Below, in pieces: positions 252-9,625 of a stretch of 9,625 bases of DNA. The translations under genes were made by a program, and so were the position numbers. The notes beneath the pieces are model-generated. The model did no database searches and had not been told where the DNA came from. It was given only the letters and a program-made list of their open reading frames with translations. Origin of the DNA: a virus (lineage: Duplodnaviria; Heunggongvirae; Uroviricota; Caudoviricetes); IMG/VR virus record IMGVR_UViG_2740892370_000019; one strand, 5' to 3'. Positions within the stretch are counted from its first letter, which is position 1, and every line of letters begins with the position of its first letter.

Positions 252-794
252 TTACTTGTCTTTATCCGGCTGAAACTTATCAGGCACATTTCCGGTAGTT
301 TCCATCAGATAATCGGACAGCATTCGCGGGATGTTTTCATCAAGTTTTGTGCATGCGTTACAGGCTCTGACAACTTCTTTTTTCAGGCCATCCAGCATGA
401 CGGGGGTCATCTGTGGGAAGCTCCTTTGCATAGTAAGCGGGAGGCTGTCCATGATTGATGAAATCTGACTCGCCAGTTTTGAAAGGGCGTACATGCAAAA
501 CTCTGTATCAATCACGTCACCGCGATCGCGCTCGTTTTTAAGTTCCTGCGCCTCCGCCTGTGCTGTCAGTAATCTGATCCTGACTCGTAAGAGTTCATCA
601 TCATCAATCTCGCCTTTGTCGTTTGTAAGCTGGCTAATTGCATTGTTAACCCTATTGTCTATCACGCTGGCAACATCATAAAACGCCTCACGGCCTTTAC
701 GTTCAACGGGAGTCACTCCCCACTTGTCGAATGCTGTAGCACTTACCCGGCAGCTTTGCGCCATGGTTTTTTTGTTCATCAGGTGCGATTTCAT
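252..794 (-). CDS. Terminase small subunit, lambda Nu1-like
   Basis: Translation aligns along its length with lambda Nu1 as I remember it (181 aa), e.g. LTAQAEAQELKNERDRGDVIDTEFCMYALSKLASQISSIMDSLPLTMQRSFP versus lambda LTRAQADAQELKNARDSAEVVETAFCTFVLSRIAGEIASILDGLPLSVQRRFP. It lies immediately downstream of a lambda-type cos site, as Nu1 does in lambda. The track start at 797 is a TTG; the first ATG is at 794 with GGGA upstream, and another ATG at 779 gives MNKK, matching the lambda N-terminus VNKK. Confidence 0.85.
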   Translation of the reverse strand: MKSHLMNKKTMAQSCRVSATAFDKWGVTPVERKGREAFYDVASVIDNRVNNAISQLTNDKGEIDDDELLRVRIRLLTAQAEAQELKNERDRGDVIDTEFCMYALSKLASQISSIMDSLPLTMQRSFPQMTPVMLDGLKKEVVRACNACTKLDENIPRMLSDYLMETTGNVPDKFQPDKDK

Positions 795-860
795 CAATAT
801 CCCAACTTGGTCAAGGTTTCAGGTTGGTGTGTTGGTGTTATCTTTCCCTTTTTATTCATG

Positions 861-995: not shown

Positions 996-1379
996 TCAAC
1001 CAATCAACTTATAGCGACCATCCCGTGCATTGCGACGTACACGCTCAATCTTGAGGCATAGCGCCGCATCTGGCTTTTTTGGGACAGGTACGCGGCAATA
1101 TTCAGAAGCTCGAGGAATATTGTTTATCCAGTCGATCACTTCACTTAAATACCAGGCCTTACGCCCTTCCGTAACCTGTACGCGTTCGGGGAACTCTCCG
1201 CGAGCCTCAAGGTTTAGCAATGTGCGACGGCTAAGGGTAGTAAGTTCCATCACCTGATTCATATCAACAAGGCGTTCACTTAAACGCATTTTGTCAGCAA
1301 TAGCCTTTAATTCCTCTACTGCTGGATCCGGATACATCATTTCGGCAATTGGCTTAAGGTCATTGTAATGATTCTGCAT
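996..1379 (-). CDS. AlpA-family (phage excisionase/regulator-like) HTH protein with N- and C-terminal extensions, 127 aa
   Basis: The central segment LTTLSRRTLLNLEARGEFPERVQVTEGRKAWYLSEVIDWI fits the AlpA/Xis-type winged-helix signature (hydrophobic HTH, GxFP, R..W..SEV..W). The ATG at 1379 is preceded by AGGGGG at 6 nt and sits 11 nt after the stop of the upstream decoration gene, suggesting coupled expression. The stop abuts the cos site. Confidence 0.65.
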   Translation of the reverse strand: MQNHYNDLKPIAEMMYPDPAVEELKAIADKMRLSERLVDMNQVMELTTLSRRTLLNLEARGEFPERVQVTEGRKAWYLSEVIDWINNIPRASEYCRVPVPKKPDAALCLKIERVRRNARDGRYKLIG

Positions 1380-1390
1380 TGTATCCCCCT

Positions 1391-1732
1391 TTACACACGA
1401 GCCAGCGGCTGAACAGAAATACCTGAGCCAACAAACGCGGCAACCTTTGCCGACAGTTCTTTTACAGACTCAGGCCAGTTCAGAGCATCAACATTTAAAA
1501 CACCTGTCTTATAAACCTGTGCCTGTGTTTTTTTCGCTGTGTCGATTTGTACAGCGGAAACATAAACCGCTTTGCCTGCGCTCGTTCCATCCCATACCAC
1601 TAGCGCACCAGTTGCATCTTCCTGCATCAGTGGCGTAAACGCAGGTATTACCCCTTTATTGGCTGAAAATATCCCCAGCGTAGTAACCAGTGCTTCAGTG
1701 CCAGACATGAGTTCAGTGTAATGAGTAGCCAT
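1391..1732 (-). CDS. Head decoration protein, lambda gpD-like (113 aa)
   Basis: TPLMQEDATGALVVWDGTSAGKAVYVSAV...YKTGVLNVDALNWPES...AAFVGSGISV matches remembered lambda gpD ([29 protein letters not shown]...YKSGTFRYEDVLWPEA...AFAGTAISIV). Size matches gpD (about 110 aa). GGGGGAG Shine-Dalgarno before the ATG at 1732; 9 nt from the capsid gene stop. Confidence 0.85.
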   Translation of the reverse strand: MATHYTELMSGTEALVTTLGIFSANKGVIPAFTPLMQEDATGALVVWDGTSAGKAVYVSAVQIDTAKKTQAQVYKTGVLNVDALNWPESVKELSAKVAAFVGSGISVQPLARV

Positions 1733-1741
1733 TGCTCCCCC

Positions 1742-2788
1742 TTAGCCAATGCGAACGGTAACAAAACGATTGATGCGGGCCGGTATTGGCTGTGGTGCTG
1801 AATGTGTCTGCACATATTCAATAGCCGGATCACCAGGCACAATATAGTTTTTCGGTGCAAGTTCGGCTTTAGTCAGCCCCATCCGGATTAGCTCCGGATC
1901 CTGAATACCGCCATAAGCGACAATCCCCTGAAGAGCCGTATTGCCAAGCACCATCAAATCAGGATCAAGGAAATATTTTTCAGTTCCGTCCTCGTCGGTA
2001 TAACGCCCGCTGTAAACAACAATCGCAACATCGCCCATATACCCTTTAAAACTCACCGAATCACCAAGGTCTTTAAGGGCCGTTTCCAGTTCGGAATTAG
2101 AACCACGACGAGTATCCAGAGCCTCTTTTATCGCCCTGAATGAACGGTATTTCTTCCATACATTACCGCCCATAATGATAATATTAGTGACGCCCTCACT
2201 AAATTCTGCGTAGCTCTCAATATCATCATTTGGATCAAAAGCTTCTTTATCCTTACCTGACCACTCAGCACCGCCAGACTGAGTGATGATATTTTGTGGT
2301 TTAATATTCCAGTCCAGCTCATAACGTTCAATACCATCGCCCTCAATGATATTTTTCCCCGTTGTGATTGCCTGAACGGCAAGCCATTCAATACGTGCAC
2401 GAATAGCTTTAGCCTGATTTACAATCGCCTGTTTAACTTTAATATTACGCGCTCCAAAAGCATTGTATTGCTCAGGTGATACACCAGCAGGGCGCACAGC
2501 TAACTTATTTGGATCAATGCTGCTTTTCGGTTTCATATAGCCAGGGCGAATTGTTTTTGATTCGTATCCCTCATCTCGTGAAACTTTACTGCCCACCATA
2601 GGAGAGCAAAACGCCGCGATCGGGATATTTGGATCGTCGATCGTATCAAGAATAATTTCTCTCGATTCAAACATTACCGAGCGAGTGAAAAACAAACTGG
2701 TAAACAACGCATTTAATTTTTTTTGCACATCTTCAGCATTAGCCACCTGCACAAGCTGTGTAGGCGAATATAAGTCAACCATACTCAT
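1742..2788 (-). CDS. Major capsid protein, lambda gpE-like (about 347 aa)
   Basis: Long collinear similarity to remembered lambda gpE: N-terminus MSMVDLYSPTQLVQVANAE versus MSMYTTAQLLAANEQ; core NIITQSGGAEWSGKDKEAFDPNDDIESYAEFSEGVTNIII...FRAIKEALDTRRGSNSELETALKDLGDSVSFKGYMGDVAIVVYSGRY versus lambda NITQSGGTEWSKRDKSTYDPTDDIEAYALNASGVVNIIV...FKAVKEKLDTRRGSNSELETAVKDLGKAVSYKGMYGDVAIVVYSGQY. The track ORF (to 2869) is over-extended upstream; the true start is the ATG at 2788 (MSM...) or at 2782, the latter having AAAGAGG at ideal spacing. Confidence 0.9.
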   Translation of the reverse strand: MSMVDLYSPTQLVQVANAEDVQKKLNALFTSLFFTRSVMFESREIILDTIDDPNIPIAAFCSPMVGSKVSRDEGYESKTIRPGYMKPKSSIDPNKLAVRPAGVSPEQYNAFGARNIKVKQAIVNQAKAIRARIEWLAVQAITTGKNIIEGDGIERYELDWNIKPQNIITQSGGAEWSGKDKEAFDPNDDIESYAEFSEGVTNIIIMGGNVWKKYRSFRAIKEALDTRRGSNSELETALKDLGDSVSFKGYMGDVAIVVYSGRYTDEDGTEKYFLDPDLMVLGNTALQGIVAYGGIQDPELIRMGLTKAELAPKNYIVPGDPAIEYVQTHSAPQPIPARINRFVTVRIG

Positions 2789-2999: not shown

Positions 3000-3422
3000 T
3001 TAAAACGGTATATTATCGCCGTACGGATCATCATTCCCCGACTGTTGTTTTGCCCTGTTCAGTGCGTCAGTGGCCTGCCCCTGCTGGCCTTTTTTGCCGC
3101 CCGGTCGCGCTGTTCGCGCACTGATCACGCTGTCTGCGATAACCTGCCAGCCCTGCCGCGTTTCGCCGTTCTGGCCTGTCCACTGGCTTACCTGCATGTT
3201 ACCCGCCACGCTCACCAGTTCGCCTTTGTGGTGTTTTGCCAGTGCGTCGGCCTGTCTGCCAAACGCCAGGACGGATAACCACATCATCGCCGTTCCGTCA
3301 TCTGCCTGGCTGCACGGAAGGGGGACCGCCATACTAGCCATCGCCATTTGTGTACCCTTGCTGGTGGTCTTTAACTGCGGGTCAGCCACCAGCCGTCCGT
3401 AAGCCGCTATCTGTGCTGTCAT
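3000..3422 (-). CDS. ssb: Single-stranded DNA-binding protein (SSB-like, OB-fold, 140 aa)
   Basis: OB-fold region (GRLVADPQLKTT..., WLSVLAFGRQADALAKHHKGELVSVAGNMQVSQWTGQNGETRQGWQVIADSV) aligns with remembered E. coli SSB ([50 protein letters not shown]). Gly/Gln-rich linker and acidic C-terminal tip ...NDDPYGDNIPF resemble the SSB ...DDDIPF tail. The start overlaps the stop of the upstream 80-aa gene (ATGA). Confidence 0.75.
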   Translation of the reverse strand: MTAQIAAYGRLVADPQLKTTSKGTQMAMASMAVPLPCSQADDGTAMMWLSVLAFGRQADALAKHHKGELVSVAGNMQVSQWTGQNGETRQGWQVIADSVISARTARPGGKKGQQGQATDALNRAKQQSGNDDPYGDNIPF

Positions 3423-3661
3423 GCTGTCTGCTCTCCGGTTTTAACGTTGATGGTTGTCACCTGTTCCGCTTCGGCAATCTCCCGTTCTGTCAGCGTGGCA
3501 AAGTTTGCAGCTGCCGTTGTCATGAATGCGCTTATCAGTTCGGGATGTGCTTTTGCATATCCTTCCCCCGTGTTTCGGTCGATGATTTTTATCGCCACTC
3601 TCAGCCAGTGCTCTGTAAGGTCAATAGCGCGGTAGTGTGGTTGTTTGCGGTTTGCCTTCAT
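3419..3661 (-). CDS. Hypothetical protein (80 aa), translationally coupled to the SSB-like gene
   Basis: Intact ORF starting at an ATG (3661) and ending in an ATGA overlap with the ssb start; the upstream Shine-Dalgarno is weak (GAGA). No family recognised from the sequence MKANRKQPHYRAIDLTEHWLRVAIKIIDRNTGEGYAKAHPELISAF... Confidence 0.5.
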   Translation of the reverse strand: MKANRKQPHYRAIDLTEHWLRVAIKIIDRNTGEGYAKAHPELISAFMTTAAANFATLTEREIAEAEQVTTINVKTGEQTA

Positions 3662-4047: not shown

Positions 4048-6171
4048 TTAATCTTCTGCCTCAGGCTGGAACATCAGCACGTAAAAAACATGCTGCTTCC
4101 CCCCAATTTTGCCGAGAGCCTTTTTCTTGTAACGGCGATCGTTACCCGCTTCCAGCATTCCGGCAGCACTCAACGCGCGGGCAAAGTGGGACGGGTTAAA
4201 TCCCTGTGCGATCTCCCCCTCAAACACATGAGGAAACGTGTAAAAACGGAACTCATCATCTTCATTTCTGATACTCCCCTTTCTGTATCCGGCAAGGTCT
4301 TTAATCGGTAAATCACGTTCATCACTGTTTGGGTAAGGAAGGTATCGACTGAACCCGAACGACGACAAAAACGCCTCAGCCTGTTCAACCATCTGTTTAA
4401 ATTCCCTGTTACCCGTGCCGAACTCCTTCACCCAGGCATTAAAGTTATGCTGTATTGCGTCCCGGCATTCCTGCGCGGCCCAGCCAGTTACATGACCGGA
4501 AAGCACAAGCGCGGCCTCCAGTATGGCGAAACGCTCACCCACGCGGTGGACCTGCTCGCCGTAGCTCTCCGGTATCAGGTTGCGCCACCGTTCGCGGCAT
4601 TCCCTTACCGTATCCTTTGCCTCCTGCTGGTGGCCTGCCAGCCATTTAACCCACTCACGACCCGCTGCCCCGTGATTTTCTGTCCAGGCATCCTTTAACG
4701 CGTCTGCGTGCGCCTTTCCGGTGCTGTATTCGTGAAAGTGCGTGGCTTTTTCCATCGGAACGTTAAGCAGGCGGACAAGCTGCCCCGCTTTGACTTTTAT
4801 CCCCTCCGTTTTGAGGAATGTCTCAACGTCCATTTCTCCGGTGCTGATTGCCACCGTGCGCCAGTGTTTTATCTCCCGGTTGCCGCCGTCCTTCGCCCCC
4901 TGTAATTTCCCGGAACCGTTAAACAACGTATAGGCTGACGTGGACACCTCCCGCGCGTTTCCGGCCTGGCCTATTTCATCCAGGGGTAACAGCCCGTCGT
5001 TGTGCGCCTCTGCCTCGTTAGCGATACCTAACGCTGTGCCGTACCAGGTCAGCCGTTGTGCGTCCGGCTCTCCCCATAAACTTGATGCGATGTTCTGCGT
5101 GGTGGTTTTCCCTGCCGATGACTGTTCGAAAAGATGTACCCCGAAGCCGTCAGCACCAACAAGGCCAATCAAAGGTGCTGCCAGTGACGTGGCAACACCC
5201 AGCATCATGGACGGATTGCCACCAGCCAGCCGCGCCACGCAGTCGCGCCAGCCCTCCGCCGTACCCGCAACCGAATAGCCATTAACAGCGGCACTTTTTC
5301 CGGTAAACAGGATCGGTTTTTCAGAATCACCAATGATTGAGCCGTCCGGCATGATATACGCGCCAAAATGCCAGCCCGTTGTTGTGCTTAGCTGCCATTC
5401 CTCATGGCTTCCGCTTAACTGCATCCAGTCAGCCAGGATAGCCCTGTATTTGCCGTTTGTTGTCACGTTCAGCCCGTGATCTTTAAGCAACCGCCAGCCG
5501 TCACGGTCGCCAATGCCACCACACGGGATCGCCATTGTGATGACTTCATGGTTTGCTAATTTTTTCCAGCGCATCACGCGGTAATGCTCTTTACCGATCG
5601 TCCCCGTTCCCAGTAGTTCAAGCGGAGAACATAACCACGTCTCAGGCCGGATAATTTCGCCTGACTGCTTATCCACTTTGGGCGTTACCCAGAAAACACC
5701 ATCGACGCGACTTTCAACGCGGGGCTTTAATTCATCATCCTGATAGCATGGCTCTTTTTTCTTTACAGGCAGTTCAACTACCTTTTTCTTTTCCGCCTGC
5801 TCTGCCCGTTCACGTTCCAGATATTCGCGCCAGTTCTCCCGTTTCTGGCTGTGCATTCCTTCAGGGTAATAATCAGCATCCCTGACACCTGCCGCTGCCA
5901 GTTTCTGCCCGATGGTATTAACAAGCCCCGGACGCAATAACCCCGCCTGGTAGAGACGCACGCGATAGCGTCCGTCCGGTACGATTTGCAGGTTGTCCAG
6001 TTCGGCAAGTTGTTGCTCTCCAAGCCAGACAGGTGGCACGTTATCGCCAGCCAGTCGCCCGTCCTGTTCCTGCCACTGCTTCGCATGTGCCCACGCATCA
6101 CTACCCGCAAAAATGATGACTTCCGTCATTTTGTCACGCGGCTGGTGTTTTAAATTTGGCGCTTTTTTCAT
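4048..6171 (-). CDS. Replication protein, primase/helicase-like (P4 alpha / D5-type family assignment tentative), about 707 aa
   Basis: Large ORF with a central P-loop-like motif FEQSSAGKTT. It is the last gene of an operon beginning near the operator region and lies next to the iteron array, the layout expected for a satellite pri-rep gene. The track start at 6186 is a GTG; the ATG at 6171 (MKKAPNL...) has GGAGAG at about 8 nt and overlaps the stop of the upstream gene. Family membership was not verified. Confidence 0.75.
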   Translation of the reverse strand: MKKAPNLKHQPRDKMTEVIIFAGSDAWAHAKQWQEQDGRLAGDNVPPVWLGEQQLAELDNLQIVPDGRYRVRLYQAGLLRPGLVNTIGQKLAAAGVRDADYYPEGMHSQKRENWREYLERERAEQAEKKKVVELPVKKKEPCYQDDELKPRVESRVDGVFWVTPKVDKQSGEIIRPETWLCSPLELLGTGTIGKEHYRVMRWKKLANHEVITMAIPCGGIGDRDGWRLLKDHGLNVTTNGKYRAILADWMQLSGSHEEWQLSTTTGWHFGAYIMPDGSIIGDSEKPILFTGKSAAVNGYSVAGTAEGWRDCVARLAGGNPSMMLGVATSLAAPLIGLVGADGFGVHLFEQSSAGKTTTQNIASSLWGEPDAQRLTWYGTALGIANEAEAHNDGLLPLDEIGQAGNAREVSTSAYTLFNGSGKLQGAKDGGNREIKHWRTVAISTGEMDVETFLKTEGIKVKAGQLVRLLNVPMEKATHFHEYSTGKAHADALKDAWTENHGAAGREWVKWLAGHQQEAKDTVRECRERWRNLIPESYGEQVHRVGERFAILEAALVLSGHVTGWAAQECRDAIQHNFNAWVKEFGTGNREFKQMVEQAEAFLSSFGFSRYLPYPNSDERDLPIKDLAGYRKGSIRNEDDEFRFYTFPHVFEGEIAQGFNPSHFARALSAAGMLEAGNDRRYKKKALGKIGGKQHVFYVLMFQPEAED

Positions 6172-6467
6172 TTCTGCTCTCTCCACGCGGCAATCATGTT
6201 TTTCAGTTCCTGTAGTTTTTTATCAACATCCATACATGACACATGGTTATTTCTGGAAGGCGGGATTTCCCGCCGGAATCTGCAAATAAAGATCTCCACG
6301 TTCAGCGAGCTATGAAATGAATAGCCATCACGAATAAAATACACACGGTCAAACATTATCGATTTTACTGTTACTCTGTTGCCGTTCTTATCCCAATAAA
6401 TAGCGCCGGGGATAATTTTGGGGTGTGCATAACCGCTGGCAGTCAAGCCAGATAAATATGTTCTCAT
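6168..6467 (-). CDS. Hypothetical protein (99 aa), AT-rich, coupled to the primase gene
   Basis: ATG at 6467 with GGGGA upstream; 6-nt gap from the preceding gene; stop overlaps the primase start. Visibly lower GC than the flanking primase gene. No family recognised. Confidence 0.6.
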   Translation of the reverse strand: MRTYLSGLTASGYAHPKIIPGAIYWDKNGNRVTVKSIMFDRVYFIRDGYSFHSSLNVEIFICRFRREIPPSRNNHVSCMDVDKKLQELKNMIAAWREQK

Positions 6468-6473
6468 GATTAT

Positions 6474-6794
6474 TTATCCCCGATTTGAATCAGTATTCGC
6501 TTTCTTTATGGCATTTAATGCATTTGTGGCATTTTCAATGGTGCACCGTAGCGAAATATCAAAATGCCCAAGCATTGCCAGTAACAAACCAATATTACCC
6601 ATATCAATGCGCATGGCCTTTTCGTCATAGTCCTCATTTTCTGACGCATGCCACATCAGGCTACCAATTGACGCAACAGCCATTGATATATTGTCAGTAG
6701 CCCCATCCGCAGCGGAATAAACCTTTTTAGCAATATCATGCTCACAGTTAAAATGCGGATTAATCAGGTACTGGTAATTTGACATATCAGGCAT
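6474..6794 (-). CDS. Hypothetical protein (106 aa), AT-rich
   Basis: The ATG at 6794 overlaps the stop of the upstream small ORF (ATGCCTGA overlap); compact operon arrangement. No family recognised. Confidence 0.6.
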   Translation of the reverse strand: MPDMSNYQYLINPHFNCEHDIAKKVYSAADGATDNISMAVASIGSLMWHASENEDYDEKAMRIDMGNIGLLLAMLGHFDISLRCTIENATNALNAIKKANTDSNRG

Positions 6795-6990
6795 GGAACA
6801 CCCCCTGACGAATACGGGCGGCGAATACCATCACGCAGCCAGCCGGGGATTGCTGGCGTGCTTCCTGTTCGCTGCTGGCCTCAATGGTAATCACGCGCGG
6901 TTGTGCCGTACTCAGGGCGATAAAACGCCAGATGTATTTATTCAGGTTGTGCGAGTCCCGCCCTTGCGGGTGTGTGGTATGATTTAGCAT
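6787..6990 (-). CDS. Hypothetical small protein (67 aa), first gene of the replication operon
   Basis: ATG at 6990 preceded by GAGGT at 5 nt; the stop overlaps the next gene start. The track shows this only as the C-terminal end of an implausible 367-aa read-through ORF. GC-rich, and an opposite-strand ORF (6793..6987) exists, so coding status is uncertain. Confidence 0.35.
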   Translation of the reverse strand: MLNHTTHPQGRDSHNLNKYIWRFIALSTAQPRVITIEASSEQEARQQSPAGCVMVFAARIRQGVFHA

Positions 6991-7087
6991 AGCTACCTCG
7001 ATAATCTTTCTATCGTTGGTGGTTAGAAGCCCGGTTAGTGTTAGCGCACTGCCGGGTTTCGTCGTTTCTGCACCTTGCATCAACAAG

Positions 7088-7160
7088 GTGTTAAACACCA
7101 ATTTAAGCCTAGGTGTTAAACACGTCAAGTGTTGAACACTTATTTTTTTTCCTGCATACT
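7088..7160. promoter_or_regulatory. Three palindromic operators with an overlapping candidate promoter for the plus-strand regulator gene
   Basis: GTGTTAAACAC at 7088..7098 and 7113..7123, and GTGTTGAACAC at 7129..7139; each has half-sites GTGTT/AACAC forming an inverted repeat. Centre spacings are about 25 and 16 bp. TTGAAC (7132..7137) lies inside the third operator, then a 17-bp spacer and CATACT (7155..7160), about 30 bp before the ATG at 7190. Confidence 0.55.
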
Positions 7161-7189
7161 GCATTTGTTTTTTGTAAGGGGTACACAAC

Positions 7190-7369
7190 ATGGCGACAAA
7201 AGCAGTAAACGCAAAATCACAAACAGTTGCGGCAAGGGTTCCGCATGAAGTTATGAACAATGTTGAGGCGGTAAAAATGCCTGGTGAAAGTACAGGGCAG
7301 TTTGTAACAGCAGCATTAAAGCGAGAAGTTGAATACCGCCAGCGTCGCAAGGCCAAAGAGCAGGAGTAA
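7190..7369 (+). CDS. Small ribbon-helix-helix-like DNA-binding protein (59 aa), candidate repressor
   Basis: Not in the ORF track (under 60 aa). MATKAVNAKSQTVAARVPHEVMNNVEAVKMPGESTGQFVTAALKREVEYRQRRKAKEQE: a TVAARVP beta-strand followed by two short helices fits the RHH (CopG/Arc-like) pattern. AAGGGG Shine-Dalgarno about 9 nt upstream; sits directly downstream of the operator triplet. Confidence 0.5.
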   Translation: MATKAVNAKSQTVAARVPHEVMNNVEAVKMPGESTGQFVTAALKREVEYRQRRKAKEQE

Positions 7370-7426
7370 CCATCACCAGCGCCGTGGTGCGGTGAACTGT
7401 GGCGCACAGGGTTACAGGTATCTACG

Positions 7427-7624
7427 ATGACTGACAAATCATTAAAGAAATTATCCTCATCCAGGGAAAAACAACGCAAAAACGCGGTAAGCGAACAAGA
7501 ACAGGAAAGATTCGCACCATGTGCGTTTGTCCTTGAGAAGTTCCTTAAAGAGTACAGGCGCACAAAAATGGGATCGCATACCTGGAAAACATCGCAGCAT
7601 GGCGATGCTAAAGAGCAGGAATAG
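7427..7624 (+). CDS. Hypothetical small basic protein (65 aa)
   Basis: ATG with AGG at about 7 nt; charged, Lys/Arg/Glu-rich composition. Lies between the RHH-like gene and the plus-strand terminator. An overlapping opposite-strand ORF (7457..7645) looks like low-complexity hydrophobic read-through. Confidence 0.3.
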   Translation: MTDKSLKKLSSSREKQRKNAVSEQEQERFAPCAFVLEKFLKEYRRTKMGSHTWKTSQHGDAKEQE

Positions 7625-7712
7625 CCCACCAGCAAGCCAGCACACTGATCACATTGCCCACCAGCCAGCAAATCGCTATGATGTTCGGGCTTATGTTTAG
7701 TGTTTTCCCATT

Positions 7713-7740
7713 GGCGACCGCCCCCGGTCGCCTTTGTTTT
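7713..7740 (+). terminator. Rho-independent terminator
   Basis: Perfect 8-bp GC-rich stem GGCGACCG (7713..7720) / CGGTCGCC (7725..7732) with loop CCCC, followed by TTTGTTTT (7733..7740). Placed where the plus-strand small genes converge on alpA. Confidence 0.65.
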
Positions 7741-7759
7741 ATGTGTCATATGCTCCCCT

Positions 7760-7969
7760 TTACGCTGCCTTTCCTGAATTAATGCGATCCCGGCTTTTAA
7801 CCCATTCCATAACCTCAGACTTAACCCAGCCAACCGAACGACCTCCAAGACTGATACGGGAGGGAAAGCGGCCTTGTTTTTCCATCTCATAACGAGTTGT
7901 ACGGCAAACGCCTGTTAGCTCTCTGCATTCTTTTTCACGGATTACACGATCTTCATTTATTTCGCGCAT
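7760..7969 (-). CDS. alpA: AlpA-family prophage regulatory protein (69 aa from the ATG at 7969; possible longer form from GTG at 8053)
   Basis: CRELTGVCRTTRYEMEKQGRFPSRISLGGRSVGWVKSEVMEWV matches the AlpA signature (HTH, G.FP, R.VGW..SEV.EW). Adjacent to and co-oriented with the integrase, as in CP4-57/P4-like elements. The track N-terminus starts at a GTG. Confidence 0.8.
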   Translation of the reverse strand: MREINEDRVIREKECRELTGVCRTTRYEMEKQGRFPSRISLGGRSVGWVKSEVMEWVKSRDRINSGKAA

Positions 7970-8386: not shown

Positions 8387-9625
8387 TCAAGAATTTTGGG
8401 TGTAAATTCGCGGGGTCATAACAACGATTTTTTCATCATTGTTCTGGAGAAGCTCGAGACGGTCTACCCATAGATTAAGAGCATCACGTTTTGCATCAAG
8501 ATAGCGGGAGTGGTTATAGACTCGTTGCATCCCTGGCATCTGGTGGGCTGTAAGCTGCTCGACAATATGCGGATCCACGCCTAAATCGTTCAGCATGGTT
8601 GTAAATGTGTGCCGGATATCGTGTAACGTCCAGGGGGCTTGATTAATTCGTCTGTGCGCTGTTCTTCCGTACTCTGCTACCGAAGATTGTCCTTTCAGTT
8701 CACCAAGCAATAAGCCCGTGTGTCTGTTCTGCTCCACCAGCTGCGTGATGAACGGCAAAATGCTTTCCGGTATTGGCCTGAATATGGCGACCTTCGTTTT
8801 GCTGTGCTCCTTCGGTACCGTCCAGAGCATTTCTTTAAAATCCCACTCCTGCACCTCAGAGCGCCTTAGCTCGGTGGTACGGCATCCGAAAACAATCAGG
8901 AGGCGAATTAGGGCGCTGTAGTACGGCGGGAATATTTTGTCATCCAGGGCGCGGAGTAATTCCCCAAGCTCCTTGTTTGTTAGTACGCGCTCGCTCACTT
9001 CTGCTTTTTTTCCCACATCACCGACAACCATATCATCAAGAACGTTGCTGATTGCGTATCGTCGTTTTCGGCAGTACTTAAGCGCCTGTTTGCATACCTG
9101 TAGCAAAAATCCGGCAGATACTGGGCTTCGCTTTGCCATCTGGTCAAAACATGCCAACCAGTGCCGTAGCTCGCATTTTTCCAACGGCAAAGCGCCAATC
9201 TGGCTGATTATGTGTTTATTGATCCGGCTTTTCAGTGATTCGTAGTCAGTGCGCTTTTCCTTTGCATACGATTCAAGCCAGTAAGTGAGCGCTTCCTTAA
9301 CTGTCACGGGGGCTAACGCATCCTGTACAGCACGATTAAGCTCATAGCGCGGATTTTTCCCCTCAGCCAGCCAGGCGCGACACTGTGCTGCTATTTCCCT
9401 GGCTGCTTTCAGGCTCAGATCGGGATAATTGCCCAGTCTCAGACGTTCCGGTGATACCTGCCTACCAGTTCCGGCCCTGTAAGTGAAATACCAGGTTAAC
9501 AGGCCGCTGGTGGAATGTCTTACGCTAAGATTGCCACCGTCATTAAAAAAGGCGTTTTTTGTGGTTGGTGATCCGCTTAATTTTCGTAAAAGAGTGTCGC
9601 TAAGTCTATGAATTGCGCTGCTCAT
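8387..9625 (-). CDS. int: Tyrosine site-specific integrase, P4-type (412 aa)
   Basis: Full-length ORF with the start at the window edge. The C-terminal catalytic region contains LHDIRHTFTT and ...GMQRVYNHSRYLD (His-x-x-Arg and the catalytic Tyr context). Size and the adjacent alpA are typical of P4-like integrase modules. Confidence 0.9.
   Translation of the reverse strand: MSSAIHRLSDTLLRKLSGSPTTKNAFFNDGGNLSVRHSTSGLLTWYFTYRAGTGRQVSPERLRLGNYPDLSLKAAREIAAQCRAWLAEGKNPRYELNRAVQDALAPVTVKEALTYWLESYAKEKRTDYESLKSRINKHIISQIGALPLEKCELRHWLACFDQMAKRSPVSAGFLLQVCKQALKYCRKRRYAISNVLDDMVVGDVGKKAEVSERVLTNKELGELLRALDDKIFPPYYSALIRLLIVFGCRTTELRRSEVQEWDFKEMLWTVPKEHSKTKVAIFRPIPESILPFITQLVEQNRHTGLLLGELKGQSSVAEYGRTAHRRINQAPWTLHDIRHTFTTMLNDLGVDPHIVEQLTAHQMPGMQRVYNHSRYLDAKRDALNLWVDRLELLQNNDEKIVVMTPRIYTQNS

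Follow-up and report, generated by a model that had tools for sequence, protein, structure and literature searches.

A co-inherited pair of AT-rich small genes at the operon head of a putative EcCICFT073-type satellite island of Escherichia coli

Operon head of the island

The window, i.e., the whole stretch of 9,625 nucleotides (nt) of the viral record IMGVR_UViG_2740892370_000019 that was analyzed, represents a satellite-type island of approximately 10 kb that is read on the minus strand, as derived from the listing of its open reading frames (ORFs) and from family scans. At the head of its replication operon lie two small AT-rich genes for proteins of 106 and 99 amino acids (aa), here referred to as ORF106 and ORF99. 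An earlier annotation made from the letters alone (the original prediction) had described them as a separately acquired cassette inserted in front of the primase gene. The present analysis removes this apparent anomaly: the AT-rich pair is one interchangeable version of a small-gene block that belongs to a very common Escherichia coli satellite, and parts of the region match in about a third of the complete E. coli genomes.

The operon head on the minus strand is ordered as promoter/operator, icd-like gene, ORF106, ORF99, and primase gene (Table 1), and all four genes are translationally coupled. The stop of the icd-like gene and the start of ORF106 overlap by 8 nt (ATGCCTGA, 6794-6787, as read from the sequence), a gap of 6 nt parts ORF106 from ORF99, the stop codon of ORF99 overlaps the start of the primase gene as ATGA (6171-6168), and a Shine-Dalgarno motif of the GGAG/GGGG type precedes every one of the starts. 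The coordinates of the two AT-rich genes and their coupling to each other and to the primase gene were thus confirmed as first described. The 67-aa ORF in front of them, initially listed as possible only, is by its profile match a genuine Icd-like gene and the first of the operon: it scores 69.6 bits against NF033153 (Icd-like; cut-off 25), and the PGAP annotation of a 100% identical genome gives it the identical name. Its product is basic, with an isoelectric point (pI) of 10.0. As for Icd of phage P1 and the NF033153 family, it is the first operon gene and overlaps its successor, but the gene downstream is no Ant homologue. When it was asked whether the small genes are real, pairwise ratios of non-synonymous to synonymous substitution rates (dN/dS) of 0.25-0.43 were obtained from few substitutions. 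Positions 6100-7200 are 100% identical to an E. coli chromosome in which the island sits between clpS and cspD, and PGAP calls exactly the genes of the window in the identical genome, including the icd-like gene, ORF106, ORF99, and the primase gene.

The composition of the pair is distinct, as originally stated, with a GC content of 0.408 for ORF106 and 0.420 for ORF99 (i.e., approximately 0.41) versus 0.569 for icd and 0.542 for the primase gene, and the steps fall on the gene borders of the ORF106-ORF99 stretch. This stretch of 627 nt belongs to the lowest 9% of equal-size windows of the island, roughly 1.4 standard deviations under the mean of 0.480. GC content is lower still in the 5' end of the capsid gene with its upstream spacer and in the spacer between alpA and the integrase gene, GC at third codon positions (GC3) is 0.386 in the capsid gene and 0.393 in ORF106, and gene GC spans 0.41-0.59 over the island. 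The GC trough is therefore real yet not unique, because the island is a mosaic in which two other stretches are lower in GC. Moreover, relatives of ORF106 in other genera have a GC content of 0.42-0.57, the same as their surroundings, and AT-richness is thus a property of the E. coli ORF106 allele and not of the family.

Relationship to EcCICFT073

An element was considered a phage-inducible chromosomal island (PICI) if it spans approximately 10-15 kb, carries int, alpA, and its own primase/replicase gene, lacks lysis and tail genes, and occupies a chromosomal attachment (att) site. The window, at approximately 10 kb, contains int, alpA, primase, ssb, capsid, decoration, and small terminase (TerS) genes and nothing further that is phage-like. 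It is assigned here to the EcCICFT073-type PICIs, because it is collinear with EcCICFT073 and because of the protein identities between the two. EcCICFT073, the prototype of the Gram-negative PICIs, carries genes for a homologue of capsid proteins and for head decoration, is mobilized by lambda and phi80, and has an activator, AlpA, that is turned on by the helper phage (Fillol-Salom et al. 2018, PMC6092414). The order common to both elements is int, alpA, divergent ylcI, icd-like gene, small ORFs, DUF4222 gene, primase gene, small ORF, ssb, capsid gene, and decoration gene, with identities of 98% for Icd, 92% for the small ORF after the primase gene, 77% for the integrase, 69% for the single-stranded DNA-binding protein (SSB), 55% for the capsid protein, and 54% for the decoration protein. 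In the slot under study, EcCICFT073 has four small ORFs (76, 73, 73, and 77 aa), unrelated to ORF106, in the place of ORF106; its DUF4222 protein (C1493) shares 34% identity with ORF99, and for the two primases the identity is 37%, in the N-terminal part only. In addition, EcCICFT073 has a PerC gene that is a difference from the window, and the Nu1-like TerS of the window is without a blastp match among the EcCICFT073 proteins compared. A P4-like satellite was also considered and rejected, as no substantial ORF of the window matches psu, sid, delta, or an alpha-type primase gene; the substantial ORFs are accounted for as lambda-E-like capsid protein, decoration protein, TerS, SSB, and DUF927 primase.

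Allelic small-gene modules

A sensitive blastn search with positions 5600-7400 gave matches in 1947 of 5426 complete E. coli genomes. The annotations under these matches comprise an Icd-like protein, one to four small hypothetical proteins, a DUF4222 protein, and a replicase of varying type (DUF927, DNA primase family, RepA helicase, DUF5906, or P4-type primase), and conservation covers the operator and icd, breaks off, and returns over the first ~400 nt of the replicase gene. In five of these islands that were inspected in detail, the small ORFs of the slot belong to PHROG families 340, 2512/5146/24341, and 2196 and are unrelated to ORF106. That ORF106 is a diverged version of such slot genes was rejected, as blastp gave nothing and the profile-profile comparison with the h74/h154 N-terminal family gave a probability of 0.1. 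The ORF106 allele occurs in 474 and this ORF99 allele in 472 of the 5426 genomes (513 and 509 places, respectively), their GC content of approximately 0.41 compares with 0.48-0.51 for the DUF4222 alleles of the alternative modules, and the icd-ORF106-ORF99 triad is also present in islands with another integrase, att site, and primase, and with an HK97-type protease-capsid fusion.

From these comparisons, ORF106 and this ORF99 allele are one of at least three alternative small-gene modules, co-inherited as a pair, and the modules are swapped by recombination between the conserved icd and the conserved replicase N-terminus. The situation is best described as allelic module exchange in a fixed operon framework, not as insertion of foreign cargo. 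Of the idea of separately acquired cargo, the separate derivation of a co-inherited pair thus stands (474/472 genomes; EcCICFT073 has a 98% identical Icd but other small genes), while the insertion does not: the slot is standard, and the operon of such satellites usually begins with Icd, followed by small genes, DUF4222, and the replicase. Likewise, the variability that had been suggested for the slot was found, in that one to four small genes separate Icd from DUF4222, within a framework that is fixed. The mosaic build of these islands is explained by a recombination unit with icd at one end and the N-terminal domain of the replicase at the other, a unit that may be of use in PICI engineering.

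The replicase N-terminus itself, i.e., primase residues 1 to ~140 (window ~5751-6171), has a nucleotide conservation of ~75% or more across islands in which the rest of the replicase is different (RepA helicase, DNA primase family). An N-terminus like MK.APN.K.LPK...AVIFAGSDAW is also found in other loci with ORF106 homologues, and these ~140 aa match phrog_2850 and no Pfam domain. The replicase N-terminus appears to mark the downstream border of the exchangeable module.

Table 1. Features of the window with their positions, strands, and the basis of each assignment.
Feature	Position	Strand	Basis or remark
Integrase	8387-9625	-	ORF listing and family scans
AlpA	7760-7969	-	ORF listing and family scans
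65-aa ORF	7427-7624	+	ORF listing
YlcI/YnfO-family gene, 59 aa	7190-7369	+	NF041551, 2.1e-16; divergently transcribed
Operator-like repeats, three copies of AGGTGTTAAACAC	7086-7139		Repeat search: two perfect copies and one at 85%
Sigma-70-like promoter (TTGACG, 17-nt spacer, TAAATT)	7100-7128	-	Consensus match only; points into the icd operon
Icd-like ORF, 67 aa, WP_032162870.1	6787-6990	-	NF033153, 69.6 bits; phrog_6196, 1.6e-44
ORF106, 106 aa	6474-6794	-	phrog_15327 / phrog_6805; no Pfam entry
ORF99, 99 aa	6168-6467	-	DUF4222/RgdR family, PF13973
DUF927 primase/replicase, 707 aa from the annotated ATG	4048-6171	-	PF06048, 2e-47; phrog_1139
80-aa ORF	3419-3661	-	ORF listing
SSB	3000-3422	-	ORF listing and family scans
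Lambda-E-like major capsid protein	1742-2782	-	ORF listing and family scans
Head decoration protein	1391-1732	-	ORF listing and family scans
AlpA-like helix-turn-helix (HTH) protein	996-1379	-	ORF listing and family scans
Nu1-like small terminase	252-797	-	phrog_57, 6e-52

The ORF106 family

ORF106 matches two PHROGs of unknown function (phrog_15327 and phrog_6805) and no Pfam, NCBIfam, or PADLOC model; a Pfam scan of 12 family members at E <= 1 gave scattered single matches only, and the family profile, run against PDB sequences, reached a best E of only 0.25. A word-indexed search retrieved close E. coli relatives only, and an exhaustive profile search retrieved homologues of ~100 aa at 23-40% identity; homologues of the same length in other genera are 23-66% identical and come from Klebsiella, Erwinia, Hafnia, Yersinia, and Superficieibacter. 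By tblastn, neither ORF106 nor ORF99 has a match in 50,697 GenBank phage records, and a phage origin of the two genes was rejected on this ground. ORF106 is acidic (pI 4.9; family range 4.3-5.9). The threshold for a membrane span on the Kyte-Doolittle scale is usually 1.6, and a membrane protein was rejected in favour of a soluble one given a highest 19-residue mean of 1.47 and the acidic character. The structural model is a two-helix hairpin of low confidence, with a predicted local distance difference test (pLDDT) score of 57, for which the fold search gave generic helical hairpins only (helices of G-protein-coupled receptors, ESCRT-III, designed bundles); conservation in the family is concentrated around the predicted hairpin tip (positions 43-71).

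To place ORF106 in its genomic context, 49 loci with distant homologues were fetched by means of family sub-alignments and annotated with phmmer and hidden Markov models; two of them duplicate others, which leaves 47 distinct loci. Nearly all are islands with int, alpA, primase, and ssb genes, and in nearly all of them the ORF106 homologue directly follows an Icd-like coding segment and precedes the replicase gene, often with a start that overlaps the preceding stop and followed by one to three more small ORFs. With an iterated Icd profile, an Icd-like segment was found adjacent and on the same strand in all 47 distinct loci. Three of these belong to another element type with cI/cro-type regulators, in which the Icd-like gene lies just downstream of the ORF106 homologue. 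In one of them (L053, 4400-7300; also L052 and L054), the element has a cI-like regulator (S24 peptidase) divergent from a cro-like one, along with an antirepressor; the ORF106 homologue is directly followed by the Icd-like ORF and then by a small ORF similar to the 76-aa one of EcCICFT073. ORF106 and icd thus stay linked even where the regulatory module and the gene order are different. The ORF106 family is unstudied, restricted to satellites, and closely linked to icd. The DUF4222 gene is less constant in the 49 loci: it was found upstream of icd in 27, at 0.4-1.6 kb from ORF106, on the primase side in five, and was undetected in 17.

The Klebsiella homologues show a peculiarity of annotation. 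Their cluster (P0025; loci L023-L049) has 287 members, one sequence of which is present on at least 1000 contigs, and many NCBI and UniRef records of these homologues are labelled "ubiquinol-cytochrome C reductase". No domain match backs this label, which looks like a propagated misannotation.

ORF99 and the DUF4222/RgdR family

ORF99 is, from its profile matches, a divergent member of the DUF4222/RgdR family (PF13973: 62.4 bits, cut-off 27, E = 2.9e-17, model positions 1-52 of 53; phrog_285: 1.5e-21), with 34-35% identity to the proteins of O157 (RgdR) and CFT073. RgdR, the sole characterized DUF4222 member, is a 99-aa protein (ECs1581, O-island 51) that activates the LEE1 promoter and type III secretion and represses motility; its action on host promoters is in trans and needs no satellite induction, its DNA binding in electrophoretic mobility shift assays is without sequence specificity, and changes at residue 20 altered its activity (Flockhart et al. 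2012, PMC3378721). RgdR (O-island 51 / CP-933C) and ORF99 are alike in that both are 99-aa, basic (ORF99: pI 9.74) DUF4222 proteins encoded directly upstream of, and overlapping with, a replicase gene; such a position, with a protein of ~99 aa directly upstream of the PICI replicase, is shared by the ECs1581-type RgdR of O157 and by C1493 of CFT073. They differ in the downstream replicase, which is a RepA-type helicase in O157 and a DUF927 primase in the window, and in sequence (34% identity), including residues 20-22, which are RGD in RgdR and P20-G21-A22 in ORF99. Because most DUF4222 members carry PGD at this site, RGD is a trait of the enterohaemorrhagic E. coli (EHEC) subgroup and not of the domain family.

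An AlphaFold2 model of ORF99, built from an alignment of 30 diverse family members, has a pLDDT of ~90 over residues 20-66 and contains four strands, a short helix, a linker, and a C-terminal helix (78-98). It predicts a Tudor/SH3-like barrel with a C-terminal helix. Bacterial barrels of the same fold class, namely, the C-terminal domain of UvrD/PcrA, the N-terminal domain of CarD, KOW, FeoA, and DUF1653, have sequence identities of 9-16% to ORF99 and differ from it by the additional C-terminal helix. A sequence search of ORF99 against the PDB gave no match, and in the viral fold library the model matched uncharacterized and DUF1653-like barrels only, with no functional lead.

The view that neither protein resembles anything has thus given way, since ORF99 belongs to a named family and homologues of ORF106 hold the same position in satellites of several Enterobacterales genera. 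The profile and structure-prediction searches that had been proposed delivered a family and a barrel for ORF99, and for ORF106 no known family beyond PHROGs and an uninformative fold. Conserved replication-operon factors of related elements, which the original prediction had named as the outcome that would speak against it, is what the two turn out to be: this holds for ORF99, because RgdR has already been reported in every E. coli PICI analyzed, and largely for ORF106 at the family level. Operon architecture and one of the two proteins (RgdR family) are already in the literature. New, and modest, are the assignment of a fold to DUF4222 and a satellite protein family, so far unstudied, in tight linkage with icd; the Tudor/SH3-like barrel could steer mechanistic work on RgdR as a regulator of EHEC type III secretion.

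Proposed functions and alternatives

The explanation favoured here, to which a probability of roughly 0.6 is given, is that the region is the early operon head of an EcCICFT073-type PICI whose products act together after induction. The helper phage would activate the satellite (via AlpA in EcCICFT073), upon which the operon would be read as one messenger RNA. The Icd-like protein would stop the host cell from dividing. ORF99, as a basic, Tudor/SH3-like and RgdR-like protein, would be a small modulator that binds DNA or the transcription machinery with low sequence specificity; it would alter host and satellite transcription, with effects on virulence genes as a side effect. The acidic, helical ORF106 would be a protein-binding partner or modulator within an Icd-centred step of host takeover and growth arrest. 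These parts differ in strength, in that the architecture and family assignments are highly secure, the role of ORF99 is tentative, and the role of ORF106 is doubtful.

Some support for a concerted action comes from ECOR61, in which a growth arrest triggered by the phage accessory protein orf24 could be reconstituted only with six linked genes, the first for an Icd-like protein and the last for a DNA primase; removal of the Icd-like gene abolished the arrest, and the Icd-like protein is likely the effector (Silas et al., bioRxiv 10.1101/2023.04.06.535777). As in the window, an Icd-like gene is followed there by linked small genes and a DNA primase gene, in an E. coli prophage-like island, and the ECOR61 locus behaves as a unit. 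It is conceivable, though quite unlikely, that the ORF106 family is the obligate partner of satellite Icd-like proteins, e.g., one that gates the growth arrest driven by Icd as an antidote, a timer, or a co-effector. If true, icd and ORF106 would form a two-component switch for host takeover or abortive infection that is conserved across Enterobacterales satellites, and the strict synteny of ORF106 and Icd makes a direct genetic test simple. More speculatively, the two proteins may act jointly on RNA polymerase, given the acidic tip of the ORF106 hairpin and the Tudor-like barrel predicted for ORF99.

Several points count against the favoured explanation. ORF99 is only 34% identical to RgdR, with PGA for RGD in a protein in which changes at residue 20 mattered. 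The ORF106 model, at a pLDDT of 57, has non-specific fold matches. The promoter match at 7128-7100 does not exceed what chance would give. Many of the 47 loci are near-identical Klebsiella islands and therefore not independent, and the adjacency of ORF106 and icd could simply reflect that both sit at the operon start. Lastly, the ECOR61 locus is likened to that of ORF106 and DUF4222 by description only.

Among the other explanations, an anti-phage or helper-interference module, in which the small genes and the Icd-like gene serve as a switch for abortive infection or superinfection exclusion upon sensing a phage protein, is considered unlikely. It would fit the orf24-triggered arrest in ECOR61, which required all six linked genes including the Icd-like gene, the variation of the icd-DUF4222 sub-slot among islands as would be expected of arms-race genes, and the known interference of PICIs with their helpers (PMC6092414). 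However, the ECOR61 genes were compared with ORF106 and ORF99 by description only, PADLOC gave no match for ORF99, ORF106, or the Icd-like protein at E <= 0.1, and the conservation of the ORF106 family across genera (23-40%) in a fixed position resembles a core function more than a fast-turnover defence. Furthermore, the interference of EcCICFT073 with lambda was later attributed to Rpp, which is encoded elsewhere in the island (PMC6739421), and a literature check for tests of the EcCICFT073 genes c1491-c1494 found no mention of them in the Rpp paper. Participation of ORF99, and perhaps ORF106, in origin recognition or replicase loading is improbable. Such a replication accessory would explain the ATGA coupling, and it agrees with a DUF4222 gene that abuts and overlaps the replicase gene in E. 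coli islands, whatever the replicase type, as well as with a basic protein of a fold class common to nucleic-acid-associated barrels. It agrees less with the trans activity of RgdR on host promoters without satellite induction (PMC3378721) and with a replicase N-terminal domain that is conserved with or without an adjacent DUF4222 gene. Across the ORF106 loci described above, the DUF4222 gene is most often upstream of icd, farther yet from the primase gene; this variable position and frequent absence outside E. coli argue against an obligatory replication role.

Two further explanations are much less probable. In the immI operon of phage P1, ant follows icd, and icd overlaps ant. The similar overlap of the icd stop with the ORF106 start, the small size and acidic character of ORF106 (probably a protein binder), and the differing content of the slot among islands would all be compatible with an antirepressor like P1 Ant or P4 epsilon that inactivates the repressor of a helper prophage. 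This is nevertheless very improbable, as ORF106 has no sequence similarity to any antirepressor family, some related islands have a separate AntA/AntB gene elsewhere, and the presence of two different capsid modules alongside the ORF106 module points to different helpers. The least probable is pure cargo, i.e., genes from outside the satellite gene pool that are irrelevant to the satellite life cycle. The sharp GC trough and the effects of the prototype RgdR on host virulence and motility genes (PMC3378721) would be in line with cargo; the translational coupling on both sides and the absence of both genes from the phage records searched by tblastn are not. Both families, moreover, are present in satellite-type islands at fixed operon positions across genera, and this fixed synteny argues against pure cargo.

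Forms of the Icd-like gene, control region, and further features

A 367-aa ORF (6787-7890, minus strand) extends the icd frame upstream through the operator, antisense to ylcI and the 65-aa ORF. PGAP calls Icd-like proteins of 134-135 aa in some genomes (L003 and L004), with a start inside the operator region, and this annotation may correspond to what was described as a "long N-terminal extension" in ECOR61; the ECOR61 Icd-like protein would then resemble the 134-135-aa forms, unlike the 67-aa form of the window. The 67-aa form is preceded by a Shine-Dalgarno motif of its own, and its match to the family model is full-length.

The repeats AGGTGTTAAACAC lie between the divergent ylcI and icd genes, and each copy contains the palindrome GTGTTnAACAC. 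They are interleaved with the promoter-like site at 7128-7100 and overlap its -35 and -10 elements; in a consensus scan, promoter-like sites in the operator region were no more numerous than in shuffled sequence. The repeats are probably an operator for an island regulator, possibly YlcI/YnfO or AlpA. The ylcI gene is kept at the same position in EcCICFT073 and other islands, and the YlcI/YnfO gene is a candidate regulator of the operator region.

At the other end of the window, the Nu1-like terminase gene (252-797) is preceded by the gene for a second AlpA-like HTH protein (996-1379), and neither was matched at an equivalent position among the EcCICFT073 proteins compared. Together they suggest a packaging-hijack strategy other than the Rpp mechanism. 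In two triad-bearing E. coli islands at the rcnR site (L055, 5079-5792; L056, 5080-5793), a gene with a HEPN domain is located on the opposite strand, between the primase gene and the HK97-type protease-capsid fusion gene, and is a candidate for defence or toxin cargo. Lastly, a GC-rich hairpin of eight pairs followed by a T run (7713-7732) is located in the gap where the 65-aa ORF on the plus strand and alpA on the minus strand converge, and is likely a terminator that parts the two transcription units.

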